Made by a program: the position numbers and the translations under genes
Source of the DNA: Candidatus Omnitrophota bacterium
GTDB taxonomy: Bacteria > Omnitrophota > Gorgyraeia > Zapsychrales > JANLHA01
Length of the DNA stretch: 64,000 nucleotides
Assembly: GCA_020632535.1 (NCBI GenBank)
Contig: JACKFJ010000005.1
Span: 64,200-128,199, forward strand
Direction: 5' to 3'
Shown: piece after piece, positions 23,221-51,406 of the stretch
Layout: every line of letters begins with the position of its first letter
Position numbering within the stretch: the first letter of the stretch is position 1
The notes under the pieces: generated by a model
The model's input: only the letters and a program-made list of their open reading frames with translations
Databases searched by the model: none
Told to the model about the DNA's origin: nothing

Positions 23221-23267
23221 TTGGTTGCGGGGACAGGATTTGAACCTGTGACCTTCAGGTTATGAGC
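23221..23267 (-). repeat. Distal att site of the island: duplicated 3' 46 nt of tRNA-fMet (+1 nt)
   Basis: TTGGTTGCGGGGACAGGATTTGAACCTGTGACCTTCAGGTTATGAGC is identical to 51329-51375. Confidence 0.9.
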
Positions 23268-23391
23268 TGGTTTAGGGGGTTTTCATGGTTTTTCGTGTTG
23301 TTTCCTGTTGGTCATTAATAGTATATATTGGAAAGACTTACGTATTTTTGTTTTTCTTCCTGTTTCCTGTTATTTCGCCTTAGGCTGCATG

Positions 23392-23415
23392 AAAGTGTAT
23401 CCCAGCGGTATCCAA
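23392..23415. repeat. 24-nt exact direct repeat, left copy (candidate integrase arm-type site)
   Basis: AAAGTGTATCCCAGCGGTATCCAA is identical to 51247-51270. Internally it is GTATCC-N5-GTATCC. It lies 124 nt inside the left att core. Confidence 0.6.
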
Positions 23416-23508
23416 AGTTAACAATAAAAGTCTCGCAATCGCTTCAGATTTTGAGGCGGTTAACATGCCTAATTGCTTCATTAATATCACCGCAGAAACA
23501 TGCCGTCA

Positions 23509-24519
23509 TTATTCCTCAAATGGTGGATATTGAGGCGGAGCAACACCGGCACGGCTTAGAACTCTTGGCAACTTTCCGATGGAGTTTTCCTGGATCTCTT
23601 TGAATTCAACAATGAACCGCCAGTCGTCGCCATAATCAAACACAAAGAGCATCTTCTTGCCAACATCCTTAAAGACGGATGAAATCTTTGTTTCCTCGAC
23701 ACTCTGGGCCTGATCGTTTGTCGGTTCGGCACCGGCATCAACAAAGGCCTCGTACGCTTCTGTTTGCTCCCGTCCAGGATGTTTATTAATGTCCCCGTAA
23801 AACCCAAAACAATGATCACAATCAAAATCAAAGGCGTCTAAAATAACCTGCGCCAAGTGCACAAGGTTCTTATTACCAGAAACCGCGATCCGGCGCACAA
23901 TATCCGCACCTTCAGCATACTGAATCATTCGTGCTTCAAACACATACGCCGATTGAGTTGGTACCGACCCACGCCGCTTCGATTGCGGTTTCTCTCCGGT
24001 AACCATTTCCCTAAAACATTCAATGGGCACTCCATAATCATGACGGCCTTCGCCTATGGCGCTGCGAAACATTGTGTTTAGCTCCCGGTTAGCGGCCACC
24101 ATAGCTTCGTCACTCGCAAGGTGCGCGAACCTTGATATAATATAGGGAAACTCGAAGAGAATCTGATTCATAGATGCAAGGACGCTGCGGCTGATTGTTT
24201 TGGCAATCGTGATTTCCTGGGCGCGTTTCATAAACTCTTCGATCTGTCCGGCTGAGAACTCCTCATAAAACAGCGCCTTGGACAATTCCTTGCGAAAAAG
24301 CTCCGGCAGACCCTGAATATTTTTACGAGTAACACCCGCCACCACGAAAGAAAACAGCGTTCCGGCATGGGTGAACAGCAAACACTTGCGCCGGTCGATA
24401 TAAAACAAATTGGCATACCATTCCTGCAATGCCCGCGTCTGATCGGAATAGTCCTTAATTTGAGCTTTAGGGATTCCTAACTCTTTCAAGACCTTAGTTG
24501 TACACCGGATAATAATCAT
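23509..24519 (-). CDS. pRiA4b ORF-3-like family protein
   Basis: 336-aa ORF. The C-terminal domain has …FGFYGD…MLFVFDYGDDWRFIVEFKEI…, the DYGDxW signature of PRiA4_ORF3. Confidence 0.55.
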   Translation of the reverse strand: MIIIRCTTKVLKELGIPKAQIKDYSDQTRALQEWYANLFYIDRRKCLLFTHAGTLFSFVVAGVTRKNIQGLPELFRKELSKALFYEEFSAGQIEEFMKRAQEITIAKTISRSVLASMNQILFEFPYIISRFAHLASDEAMVAANRELNTMFRSAIGEGRHDYGVPIECFREMVTGEKPQSKRRGSVPTQSAYVFEARMIQYAEGADIVRRIAVSGNKNLVHLAQVILDAFDFDCDHCFGFYGDINKHPGREQTEAYEAFVDAGAEPTNDQAQSVEETKISSVFKDVGKKMLFVFDYGDDWRFIVEFKEIQENSIGKLPRVLSRAGVAPPQYPPFEE

Positions 24520-24547
24520 ATGAAAATTTTACCGCTTAATATTGCTA

Positions 24548-25060
24548 TTACAACTTTTCTTTTCGCAAGAACGCTGCGACACACGCCTTGATTTGATTGA
24601 ACGCTACAGGGTAAAAATCCCATGCATCCACAGAAACATTGACTATCAAAGAATCCTCATTTAGCCTTCTGACTTTATAACGCTCATGCACATGTCCGCA
24701 AAGATTCAATGGGACCGCCGGATCAGCATGTTCCGGTCGATGCGTCATACAGATATTTTGGGAACCATAATATAGATACATTTTGGTTATTATTGTCTTA
24801 AGGCTATTGCTGTTGTCGTGATTGCCTTTGATAAAGACAAACTTTCCGTTAAGCTTGTTTTCAAGCTCTCCAGCTATCTTGTTCCCGCCCTTAAAGACAA
24901 AGTCACCCAGAAAGAAAACAGTGTCTCCAGGTTTCACCCGTTCATTGTGTCGATGTATGATTGCCTCATTCATTTCCTCAACATTCTTAAATGGGCGACC
25001 ACAATAGCGTATGATATTATGATGCGAAAAATGATAATCTGAAGTCCACCAATAGTTCAT
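24548..25060 (-). CDS. Small calcineurin-like metallophosphoesterase (phage/plasmid type)
   Basis: 170-aa ORF with the motifs SDYHFSH, GDFVF, GNHD and GHVH in canonical order. Confidence 0.75.
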   Translation of the reverse strand: MNYWWTSDYHFSHHNIIRYCGRPFKNVEEMNEAIIHRHNERVKPGDTVFFLGDFVFKGGNKIAGELENKLNGKFVFIKGNHDNSNSLKTIITKMYLYYGSQNICMTHRPEHADPAVPLNLCGHVHERYKVRRLNEDSLIVNVSVDAWDFYPVAFNQIKACVAAFLRKEKL

Positions 25061-25155
25061 CTTTAAAACTCCATTACAAATAGAAAGCCCGCCGATTTGA
25101 GCATTATTAAGAGGCTTGGCGGGCAGATTAGTTTAAATGAATAAACGACTTACTT

Positions 25156-25491
25156 CTAAGCTGAAGCCATCGCTTTCACTATTTGCCTTTTTACAGTTGC
25201 GTTCAACTCTACAACTTTCATCCTGACTGTCATACCAATGTGAAGCAAAACTTTTTCTAATGTCACAATACTACTAAACTCACCATTTTCTATTTTTGAG
25301 ATATGCTGCTGTGAAACACCTACTTCTCTAGCCAAGTCCGCTTGTGTTATTTTCTTTTTAATTCGATAATCAATAATCTTTCGGACAATATTGTATTTCT
25401 GTTGTTCCAATTCATACAACTCCTTAAAGTAAGGATTCTTCAGCTTTTCCTCTAAATGCTCATTAACGGTTATTTCTTTCATTTTTATCAC
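25156..25491 (-). CDS. higA: XRE-family HTH antitoxin (HigA-like)
   Basis: 111-aa ORF with the HTH KKITQADLAREVGVSQQHISKIENG. It lies downstream of a RelE/Gp49-like toxin, which is the HigBA gene order. Confidence 0.7.
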   Translation of the reverse strand: MIKMKEITVNEHLEEKLKNPYFKELYELEQQKYNIVRKIIDYRIKKKITQADLAREVGVSQQHISKIENGEFSSIVTLEKVLLHIGMTVRMKVVELNATVKRQIVKAMASA

Positions 25492-25507
25492 CTCTTCTAT
25501 TTAATTC

Positions 25508-49882: not shown

Positions 49883-50059
49883 TTATAAATTGCTCCTACT
49901 CTTGATAAAATTCTCTAAATCGTCTGGGTGGATTCGCCACTTGCCAACCTTGATAGCTTTGATTTCTTTCAGGTTGATAAGTTCACGCACCCGTTCTTCT
50001 GTCAGGCCTAAACGCTTTGCGGCTTCCCTAACTGTCAAATATTTAGTTAAGTCGGTCAT
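49883..50059 (-). CDS. Second excisionase-family HTH DNA-binding protein
   Basis: 58-aa ORF below the track cutoff, translated by hand: MTDLTKYLTVREAAKRLGLTEERVRELINLKEIKAIKVGKWRIHPDDLENFIKSRSNL. Confidence 0.6.
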   Translation of the reverse strand: MTDLTKYLTVREAAKRLGLTEERVRELINLKEIKAIKVGKWRIHPDDLENFIKSRSNL

Positions 50060-50125
50060 TCTTCTCTATTCCTTATTGTTCCAGATTATTCCATATTCTA
50101 CTATAAAAAGAAACATAACCCAACC

Positions 50126-51208
50126 TTATTCTTCCTCCTTAACCATTTCAACCAATTCATCTTCTTGATCTGCTCCTCTGAGCCTTCCCCACAAGTACCC
50201 AAGACGATAACTCATCCCCTCACTCATGAGATGCCAGTTTGTGCCCGCTAAAGTCTTCTTTATAAGCCTCCGAAGCTTACGAACACTATCGTTTTCTTTT
50301 CTCGAGGAATCGGCATCCTGAACGCTAAAGGGGATAATAAAATGTCTGCTTATTTCCGGCTTCTCGAAGGATAGCTTAACGTATTTCTCTTTCTTTAAGG
50401 ATTTAGAAAGAACCCTCTCGAGTTGAACCGTTGTAAGTTTCTCCAACTGGGCTGCTTTTTTATAAACAGGGTTCGTTTCTCTCTGCTCTATCCGGTCAAG
50501 CAGCTCAGATAATCTTTTCACACGATTATAGCCTTCAATATATTCAAAGCCTTCTTTCTCGGATAAACAAAATTCAGCCCTATGCTTTTTCAACAATGCC
50601 TTCTCCTGTCGCTCTCGTTTATTATTCTCAACTTTTTTCTTATCTAAATCAACGACCTCGGTCTCCAGAAACCCACAGAAAGAACATCTCGTCGTCCATG
50701 TTTCAATATGATTTTTCTCAGCATACGAAATCTTAATTTCCTTATTACACTTCGGGCAACAATGTGGCTTTGGGACATAAAACTGCCCGTCTTCCCAGAC
50801 ACCCTTTTTCTTTTTGCATGAAGGGCATTCGAATGTAAAAAGAACTCGAAGAGGCTCATCTGAGTTATACAGCATTTTATAAATGCTTTGCATTAGTGCA
50901 GCGCAATTGGAGCAATGGACATCCTTAGGCTCCTGGGCAGCGTCTAATTTCTCATCCAGCCGACGATCTCGCTCAATCCACTCATTTATCATAGAGCGTC
51001 TTCGGCGATAATTCTCGCCCTTAATAAAGTAAAGTTCTGATTTTAAACCGAAAGAAGCAGCCTGAGCTTGTGTCAGACCCTTAGGAAGGTCTTTTCTCTT
51101 CTGCTCACATAATATTCGCTTCCAGTTTTCAATAACTCGAAGGCATTCCTGGATGGTTAACAGATCATAAAGATCCTGATAATAAGCTTCTTCTTTCAGA
51201 TATTTCAT
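50126..51208 (-). CDS. Hypothetical protein with two zinc-ribbon-like CxxC pairs, first gene inside the tRNA-proximal island end
   Basis: 360-aa ORF with CSNC…CPSC and CPKC…CSFC. No family recognised. Confidence 0.45.
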   Translation of the reverse strand: MKYLKEEAYYQDLYDLLTIQECLRVIENWKRILCEQKRKDLPKGLTQAQAASFGLKSELYFIKGENYRRRRSMINEWIERDRRLDEKLDAAQEPKDVHCSNCAALMQSIYKMLYNSDEPLRVLFTFECPSCKKKKGVWEDGQFYVPKPHCCPKCNKEIKISYAEKNHIETWTTRCSFCGFLETEVVDLDKKKVENNKRERQEKALLKKHRAEFCLSEKEGFEYIEGYNRVKRLSELLDRIEQRETNPVYKKAAQLEKLTTVQLERVLSKSLKKEKYVKLSFEKPEISRHFIIPFSVQDADSSRKENDSVRKLRRLIKKTLAGTNWHLMSEGMSYRLGYLWGRLRGADQEDELVEMVKEEE

Positions 51209-51246
51209 GATGAATATTATAGCGGGACCAAGGGCGGGAAGGGAAA

Positions 51247-51270
51247 AAAGTGTATCCCAGCGGTATCCAA
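51247..51270. repeat. 24-nt exact direct repeat, right copy (candidate integrase arm-type site)
   Basis: Identical to 23392-23415. Lies 58 nt inside the right att core. Confidence 0.6.
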
Positions 51271-51283
51271 GGGGATTTTGGGG

Positions 51284-51324
51284 GATAAAAAAAGGGCCAT
51301 AGAATAATCGTAACCCTATGGCCC
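51284..51324 (-). terminator. Island-borne intrinsic terminator for the reconstituted tRNA
   Basis: Minus strand: GGGCCATAG-13 nt-CTATGGCCC followed by TTTTTTTAT, starting 6 nt after the tRNA 3' end. Confidence 0.65.
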
Positions 51325-51329
51325 TAAGT

Positions 51330-51406
51330 TGGTTGCGGGGACAGGATTTGAACCTGTGACCTTCAGGTTATGAGCCTGACGAGCTACCGGGCTGCTCCAC
51401 CCCGCG
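51330..51406 (-). tRNA. Initiator tRNA-Met (anticodon CAT), CCA encoded
   Basis: CGCGGGGTGGAGCAGCCCGGTAGCTCGTCAGGCTCATAACCTGAAGGTCACAGGTTCAAATCCTGTCCCCGCAACCA. Full 77-nt cloverleaf with the C1xA72 mismatch and A11:U24 pair typical of bacterial initiators. Confidence 0.95.

Follow-up and report, generated by a model that had tools for sequence, protein, structure and literature searches.

The 64,000-nucleotide (nt) stretch of contig JACKFJ010000005.1 analysed here (the window) comes from a Candidatus Omnitrophica metagenome-assembled genome (MAG). Between positions 23221 and 51375 it carries a segment bounded by two copies of the 3' half of an initiator tRNA gene, with a tyrosine integrase gene between them. 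This segment is a typical, well-preserved 28-kb tRNA-integrating element, and it is likely one integrated genomic island whose only backbone genes are those for Xis (an HTH_17 protein) and a heterobivalent tyrosine integrase. Nearly all island genes lie on the minus strand, and the right flank is core genome, with the genes for DivIC, enolase and FtsH. The attachment (att) sites, the recombination genes and the cargo slots are arranged as follows.

51330..51406, minus strand: intact tRNA-Met(CAT), its 3' 46 nt supplied by the island (attL side); found with ARAGORN and Rfam
51329..51375, no strand: proximal core, which begins at the anticodon loop and extends 1 nt past the tRNA 3' end; the related locus L002 has an identical 46-nt core at its distal end
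51284..51325, minus strand: island-supplied intrinsic terminator for the regenerated tRNA, a 13-pair stem followed by TTTTTTT
51247..51270, no strand: predicted P' arm-type site, a tandem GTATCC-N5-GTATCC, 58 nt from the core; relatives have similar tandem sites with an 11-bp period at +44 to +90
28631..51246, minus strand: cargo slot 1, from the P' arm to xis; unconserved in relatives except for a restriction-modification (R-M) system (in L022) and an orphan gene (in L041)
28451..28630, minus strand: Xis-type recombination directionality factor (RDF; HTH_17), directly upstream of int; PF12728, 3e-10
27041..28279, minus strand: tyrosine integrase (Int), 412 amino acids (aa), three domains; PF00589, 4e-25; phrog_1, 3.5e-80
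23416..27040, no strand: cargo slot 2, from int to the P arm; in relatives the slot holds AbiE, HipA, MNT/HEPN and other genes
23392..23415, no strand: predicted P arm-type site with the same sequence as the P' 24-mer; 124 nt separate it from the distal core
23221..23267, no strand: distal core (attR), the displaced tRNA 3' fragment; 47-nt exact repeat
23065..23220, minus strand: probable scar, of about 155 nt, of an older family element, with a hairpin, a degenerate P' arm and a partial tRNA 3' end

The only tRNA gene in the window, at 51330-51406 on the minus strand, is of the initiator tRNA-Met(CAT) type according to ARAGORN and Rfam (tRNA model, 64.5 bits), and the initiator hallmarks, a C1xA72 mismatch and an A11:U24 pair, can be read from its sequence. 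A first-pass annotation of this DNA had reported a 47-nt repeat at 51329-51375 and 23221-23267, made up of the 3' 46 nt of tRNA-fMet plus 1 nt; the two copies are indeed identical at 47 of 47 positions and share the same orientation. The block of identity begins at GCTCATAA, i.e., with the last base of the 5' anticodon stem and then the loop, as it also does in the related element L047. An onset at the anticodon loop is the sublocation that marks class A islands. The features used to recognize Islander-type elements are likewise present: an intact tRNA gene (tDNA), a cognate 3' fragment downstream in the same orientation, and an integrase gene between the two. The terminator hairpin proper, which follows the tRNA 3' end, lies inside the island at 51325-51293 on the minus strand, with a run of T after it. 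Upstream of tRNA-fMet, three direct repeats of about 35 nt (CTCCTCGCAATGG...; spacing 40-41 nt) at 51454-51569 overlap the 3' end of the DivIC gene, and a public contig from the same strain (L001) stops just before them.

As annotated earlier, the window encodes a single tyrosine integrase, in an open reading frame (ORF) at 27041-28432 on the minus strand, and tblastn at E<=10 detected no remnant of a second one. The protein starts at M52 of this ORF (28279) and is 412 aa long; homologues of 390-415 aa align from there, and the 51 aa upstream, with one CxxC, are not conserved. The Cys-rich N-terminal extension of the first-pass annotation is an artefact of ORF calling, and a conserved RCxxC...CxH motif lies instead inside the true N-terminal domain. 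These 51 aa were also considered as a remnant of a 93-aa ORF of the relatives, an idea that was abandoned, as only a short similarity (FFKEVF) was found. Homologues of the integrase number in the thousands, the closest (66% identical) coming from Ca. Omnitrophica. The catalytic residues R216, K262, H341, R344, H367 and Y377, forming the R-K-HxxR-H-Y set, are invariant (alignment A1), the SAM-like core-binding domain matches PF14659 and PF22022, and a PDB search with the integrase returned 3nkh, 6en0 and 1z1g. At the true N-terminus stand an invariant R-C-x2-C, a nearly invariant third Cys and then His or Cys, followed by the segment Y-x-I-x-Y-R...ETVG.NKK.AE..L. The AlphaFold (AF2) model of residues 1-85, obtained with a 28-sequence alignment, has a beta-beta-beta-alpha layout (mean pLDDT 78). 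In Pfam, the domain reaches 14-20 bits with Arm-DNA-bind_2, for which the cut-off is 22, and likewise stays below threshold with Arm-DNA-bind_4. A Foldseek search returned nothing significant for the domain, the arm-binding domain of the HPI integrase (3jtz) ranking 13th (E 0.66; root-mean-square deviation 1.8 A over 41 columns). Judged from the model, the N-terminal domain looks like an arm-binding domain that scores below formal thresholds. Its CxxC...CxH may be zinc-knuckle-like, and no match was found between this motif and any described arm domain.

The two excisionase-type genes noted in the first pass both encode HTH_17 proteins, of which one adjoins int and the other lies at 49883-50059. 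In a tblastn comparison of all island proteins with related loci, conservation was limited to Int (in 87 loci) and the HTH_17 encoded beside int (in 63 loci, upstream of it). Since it alone among the HTH_17 genes is conserved, the int-adjacent gene is assigned, on comparative grounds, as the Xis, and the other one is counted as cargo.

The 24-mer AAAGTGTATCCCAGCGGTATCCAA was found in exact copies at 23392-23415 and 51247-51270, i.e., 124 nt inside the distal core and 58 nt inside the proximal core, in agreement with the first-pass description. The window holds no further copy at up to 3 mismatches, and none arose in 100 shuffles. Among 185,579 species genomes, the 20-mer heart of the arm occurs in only 2 stretches, in both cases the distal end of an element whose integrase shares 64-66% identity with that of the island, and the scanned metagenome and viral contigs gave no match. 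Hence the possibility, raised at the outset, that the 24-mer is a generic genomic repeat is not borne out, with two copies in the window and two genomic stretches that both belong to homologous elements. GGATAC is not enriched elsewhere in the island, including in the 38-nt repeats of the cargo (GTATCC occurs 16 times in the window against 15.8 expected), and no other pair of 7-mers with an 11-bp phase across the window is att-like.

For comparison, 80 loci encoding relatives of the integrase were collected, and their tRNA genes, core fragments and short tandem repeats were mapped by scripts, with a background of 0.017 tandems of 11-bp period per 45-nt window. In clade A (43-66% identity), the tRNA lies upstream and is oriented like int. 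Proximal tandem half-sites of 11-bp period are located at +62 to +72 nt past the tRNA end in 8 of 9 loci, and distal ones at -134 to -147 nt before the distal core in 9 of 10. In clade B (37-46% identity), int abuts the tRNA, and a tandem is found at +44 to +128 in 16 of 17 loci and at -139 in both loci with captured distal ends (L056 and L084). The half-sites themselves differ between integrase lineages. They read GGATAC in this island, L002 and L008 (integrases 64-66% identical), GGTACC in L013 (63%), GCTAACA, GCTAGCA, GATAGCA or GGCTAAT in the group of 43-51% identity, and TTCTAACA, TGCTACCG or TTGTAAGCA in clade B. At the distal end, L002 carries the same sequence motif as the 24-mer at -147, and lineage-specific motifs stand at -134 to -147 in L013, L019, L020, L025, L027, L028 and L047. 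L047, a complete relative of 9.3 kb in a different CAT tRNA, has a 27-nt exact arm pair together with a 47-nt repeat, and L028 and L019 show matched lineage-specific arm motifs on both sides. L002 follows the order int, 3.6 kb of cargo (including AbiEi/AbiEii), the motif and the identical 46-nt tRNA-fMet core, and its DNA between motif and core has diverged from that of this island. Among relatives, conservation extends equally to the terminator hairpin that separates the tRNA end from the P' arm. In L008 (1290-1330), from the MAG whose integrase (P0001) is the closest, the distal core that follows the GGATAC arm matches the tRNA from the anticodon loop to the variable region only and differs in the T-arm part, and may be a degraded fragment or a secondary integration site.

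The sequences thus show directly the anatomy of the island and, across the family, a conserved position and phasing of the arms combined with an arm sequence specific to each lineage. Because position and phasing are conserved, the sequence tracks the integrase lineage and the surroundings are not conserved, the 24-mers are predicted to be, most likely, the arm-type sites of a single attP. The suggestion that one element's integrase uses the 24-mers as arms thereby gains support from about 30 related elements with the same 11-bp-phased tandem at the same two positions. As far as we found, the integrase lineage and host phylum (Omnitrophota) of this island have no published description.

The comparison also accounts for the place of the integrase, which had been described as displaced from the tRNA. 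Throughout clade A, the gene occupies the end far from the tRNA and is read in the direction of the distal core, and in this island only about 3.6 kb of cargo parts int from the P arm. In the smallest versions (L020, L028 and L025), the P arm lies within the int ORF or runs across its stop codon, as with GCTAACACCGTGCTAACA, which codes for the protein tail ...ANTVLTK. In L047, L013, L002, this window, L019 and L027, 0.75-8.5 kb separate the int stop from the P arm. In relatives, these inserts hold toxin-antitoxin or defence genes, including AbiE, HipA/Fic and an MNT/HEPN-like pair; in this island, genes of the same kinds fill the insert, with the HigB-like pair, the abiF RNA locus and the PDC-S63 gene. 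The comparison thus indicates that a P arm within the 3' end of int is the ancestral state and that the slot for cargo between the two is derived. In this island, the slot from the P' arm to xis is the larger one, with 22.6 kb of cargo.

From sequence comparison, we infer how the integrase binds its DNA, where the crossover lies and that the island may currently be mobile. The circular form would carry an attP of about 280 bp, composed of the P arm 24-mer, 124 nt, the 47-nt core, 58 nt with the terminator, and the P' arm 24-mer. The N-terminal domain of the integrase would grip the tandem GGATAC half-sites on both arms, with the core-binding and catalytic domains holding the core, and strand exchange would take place within or beside the anticodon loop of tRNA-fMet. 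Integration would rebuild the 3' half of the tRNA with a new terminator and move the old 3' half to the far end; int reads towards the P arm and would hence become tRNA-distal after integration. Xis, from the gene just upstream of int, would direct excision.

To the left of the distal core, positions 23065-23220 are probably a scar, of about 155 nt, of an earlier family element, a reading held with moderate confidence. The hairpin at 23189-23218 is visible in the sequence and was left unscored as a terminator by the tool used. At +63 past the distal core (23142-23158), GTGTAGCGGAGCTAACA forms a degenerate pair of the GCTAACA type, and plus-strand TGTTAGC has a single occurrence in the 64 kb. 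Positions 23065-23085 are a 21-nt copy of the tRNA 3' end matching at 20 of 21 positions, including an exact 17-mer (0.02 expected by chance). If this is an older scar, the terminator regarded as native is not native. Consequently, the earlier proposal that each tRNA copy has its own terminator holds for the island-supplied one, and the one at 23189-23218 was probably left by the older element. The native flank likely starts left of 23065, where a terminator-like hairpin and a TTGACC-N17-TATAAT promoter for the gene at 22101-22871 are found.

Similar remains were observed in most clade A relatives. L002 (at 14900-15000), L013, L019, L025 and L027 have a second terminator and P' arm at about +65 to +90 past the distal core, and L047 and L025b have half-sites only. 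The recurrence of a terminator and P' arm past distal cores indicates that tandem occupancy of tRNA-fMet is common in this family. In 5 of 6 cases, the tandem neighbours differ in arm type, e.g., GGATAC followed by GCTAACA or GCTAGCA. A tentative idea, which we hold to be possible rather than probable, is that a shared tRNA-fMet attB core and diverged arm specificity let family members stack in tandem without cross-excision; each newcomer would bring a new tRNA 3' half and a new terminator, and the window would represent a GGATAC island placed before a GCTAACA scar. Further into the left flank, two genes (12592-13639, minus strand) are 73% identical to cargo between int and the P arm of L013 (L013 2427-3472); L093 has copies of them that carry the annotation of an NTP_transf_2/Polbeta pair. 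In the same flank, a DUF1016/SNase gene (18803-19804, minus strand) is 48% identical to one beyond the distal core of L002 (L002 17227-18213). The left flank, including the protein with eight DUF4379 domains (19945-22068), looks like further accessory DNA.

Several points weigh against the segment being one mobile island with the att sites described. The related loci share ancestry, so that binomial figures overstate their independence and the probabilities derived from them are indicative only. Excision lacks experimental or read-level support, and no empty attB was found in public contigs; those with identical flank proteins (enolase and the 707-aa left-flank gene; one Logan run) break in or near the repeats. 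The island also exceeds complete relatives (about 9 kb) about threefold in size, carries a second HTH_17 gene and is mosaic in G+C content (GC), and past accretion is possible. The shift in composition between two modules noted in the first pass is present insofar as GC is low (0.31-0.36) at 37-42 and 44-46 kb, compared with about 0.40-0.43 elsewhere; the pattern is patchy rather than one clean step. Size, patchy GC and the two HTH_17 genes, together with the tandem occupancy that is common in the family and has probably left a scar in this window too, would suit a composite, in which two family elements, or one element and a non-autonomous partner, stood in tandem at tRNA-fMet before an internal att site and one recombination module were deleted. 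However, no internal core was found at up to 9/46 mismatches, no internal arm at up to 3/24 and no integrase remnant at the tblastn threshold given above; the two outer arms have one and the same sequence, of the type that goes with the lineage of the only integrase present, and the second HTH_17 is without a counterpart in related elements. On account of these findings, a single element grown by cargo acquisition is the favoured reading of the sequence, a composite origin is unlikely, and the fusion with a lost internal att site that had been put forward as an alternative finds no support.

The function of the 24-mers allows for other explanations as well. The right-hand copy is located 39 nt upstream of the start of a 360-aa ORF, as might be expected if the 24-mers were operators or promoter elements of adjacent genes, or else a generic repeat, instead of recombination sites. 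Yet the 24-mer has two copies in the window and essentially none in public sequences outside homologous elements, and in relatives the corresponding motifs lie just as far from the att core although the neighbouring genes all differ, which makes this explanation highly improbable. A small serine recombinase was also recognized in the first pass and is present at 32485-33009. With its complete resolvase catalytic domain (PF00239, 1e-49), it could be imagined to act on the 24-mers or to mobilise part of the island. Related elements have arm pairs without the resolvase, however, and in the protein the catalytic domain is followed by only a basic tail of 27 aa, in which no helix-turn-helix (HTH) is recognisable. 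Moreover, the arms of a tyrosine integrase would be expected to have this geometry, with direct half-sites phased at 11 bp and placed 58-124 nt from a tRNA core. A role of this recombinase is extremely improbable, and, given its absence from related elements, it is classed as cargo. Arm-type sites of the tyrosine integrase thus remain the preferred reading of the 24-mers.

The two slots of the island contain the following features.

23509-27031: gene for a DUF6933+PRiA4_ORF3 protein (PDC-S63); metallophosphoesterase gene with abiF RNA; HTH_3 and Gp49/HigB-like pair; gene for a 300-aa unknown protein (plus strand)
28.6-36.6 kb: unknown ORFs; gene for a 388-aa protein with two MerR HTH domains; DUF932 gene; small HTH, bPH, TPR and response-regulator genes
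30353-30528: three 38-nt direct repeats with a spacing of 67-71 nt
32485-33009, minus strand: small serine recombinase (resolvase), 174 aa
37360-39447 and 39438-40778, minus strand: DRT3, consisting of Drt3b (E 1e-207) and Drt3a (E 1e-113), respectively
40781-42277, minus strand: DUF2779/Cas4-like gene
42268-43671, minus strand: Mrr/PDC-S02
43656-49236, minus strand: type I R-M system, HsdR/M/S
49334-49876: gene for a 180-aa unknown protein
49883-50059, minus strand: second HTH_17, no counterpart in related elements
50126-51208, minus strand: 360-aa protein with four CxxC pairs, no match in Pfam, NCBIfam, PHROG or PADLOC

In tblastn searches of the related loci, the second HTH_17, the resolvase, the DUF932 protein, the double-MerR protein and DRT3 had no counterparts. 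The type I R-M system recurs in L022 only, with 58-63% identity and on the opposite side of int. By these comparisons, DRT3, the type I R-M system, Mrr, the resolvase, the second HTH_17 and the 360-aa zinc-ribbon protein are assigned to cargo. Pfam and PHROG scans revealed no capsid, terminase, portal or tail genes, and no relaxase or type IV secretion system families were detected among the scanned island ORFs, several of which have no match at all and could include a novel relaxase.

In the slot between int and the P arm, an abiF RNA (RF03085, 58 bits; gathering threshold 37) at 25087-25123 on the minus strand lies directly upstream of the gene for a 170-aa calcineurin-like metallophosphoesterase (24548-25060, minus strand). 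Its partner here is this metallophosphoesterase instead of AbiF/Abi_2, and the Gp49/HigB-like and HTH_3 pair adjoins. In the other slot, the 38-nt repeats, with the minus-strand consensus TGTCCyAGGGTTTCkGATACTC, are situated between the genes for the 388-aa double-MerR-HTH protein and a 254-aa unknown protein and are iteron- or operator-like. The resolvase was also examined as a gene interrupted by an in-frame stop, and this was rejected, as the downstream in-frame ORF is unlike an HTH or DNA-binding domain. Past DRT3, a stretch of about 1 kb (from 36388) contains small ORFs without a family match, 35-nt repeats (36591/36859) and 22-nt repeats (36623/37492). It had no Rfam match and could encode the non-coding RNA of the system. 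Within the R-M system, residues 414-565 of HsdS (584 aa; 43656-45410, minus strand) match the DarG antitoxin model NF048014 (E 4.6e-10).

An NCBI entry from a Candidatus Omnitrophica MAG has exactly the sequence of the 360-aa protein, which belongs to an unannotated family of at least 123 proteins from Omnitrophica, Planctomycetota and Patescibacteria, some of them 540-570 aa long. The protein, encoded beside the tRNA, was considered as a cryptic Cys-rich recombinase, an idea that was discarded in favour of cargo given 123 homologues in unrelated contexts without a tRNA or int. This orphan recurs in L041 and in unrelated, defence-like neighbourhoods. Members of the family were seen in L010, L011, L012 and L041, and in L010 the gene adjoins DUF2130 and OLD-family ATPase/TOPRIM genes. 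The 360-aa protein may serve in defence or as an accessory gene product.

What sets the island apart is chiefly the phylum of its host, the defence genes that it carries and how clearly attP can be mapped across the family; to the mechanism of site-specific recombination it adds nothing new. The map, comprising the core, the terminator and two arm pairs, is comparatively supported and applies to a large undescribed integrase family with thousands of homologues in Omnitrophota, Planctomycetota and candidate phyla. With it, the boundaries and cargo slots of islands in MAGs can be predicted. Defence and toxin-antitoxin genes gather in the two slots (DRT3, type I R-M, Mrr, a HigBA-like pair, AbiE and abiF RNA), and the family thereby offers a guide for the mining of defence systems in uncultured bacteria.

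Among well-known systems, the Int/Xis/attP module of phage lambda is alike in that arms flank the core, attP measures about 250-280 bp and int has an RDF gene beside it. Lambda Int (1z1g) also has three domains, aligns with the island integrase over the core-binding region and shares, in its N-terminal domain, the beta-sheet-plus-helix layout of the island integrase model. In contrast to the intergenic attB of lambda, the target of the island is a tRNA gene. Lambda has 2+3 arm sites, whereas the island has one identical tandem pair per side with an 11-bp period; unlike that of lambda, the N-terminal domain of the island integrase has the conserved CxxC...CxH and remains below every Pfam arm-domain threshold. 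pSAM2 (tRNA-Pro) and mycobacteriophage L5 (tRNA-Gly) integrate from the anticodon loop into the 3' end of a tRNA gene, with xis-int beside attP and repeated arm sites on both arms. Their integrase lineage and arms are unrelated to those of the island, in which int is tRNA-distal and cargo stands between int and the P arm. P2 prophages and P4-like satellite hotspots combine a small conserved mobility backbone with variable slots for anti-phage and toxin-antitoxin genes; the island has no phage or satellite structural or replication genes, and the likeness is one of cargo organisation only. With Islander-type class A islands, the element shares the intact tDNA with a displaced 3' fragment in the same orientation, the internal integrase and a block of identity that runs from the anticodon loop, with no essential difference. 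Tandem arrays and damaged fragments are documented in that class, with 2083 class A islands and 125 tandem arrays reported (PMC4383910).

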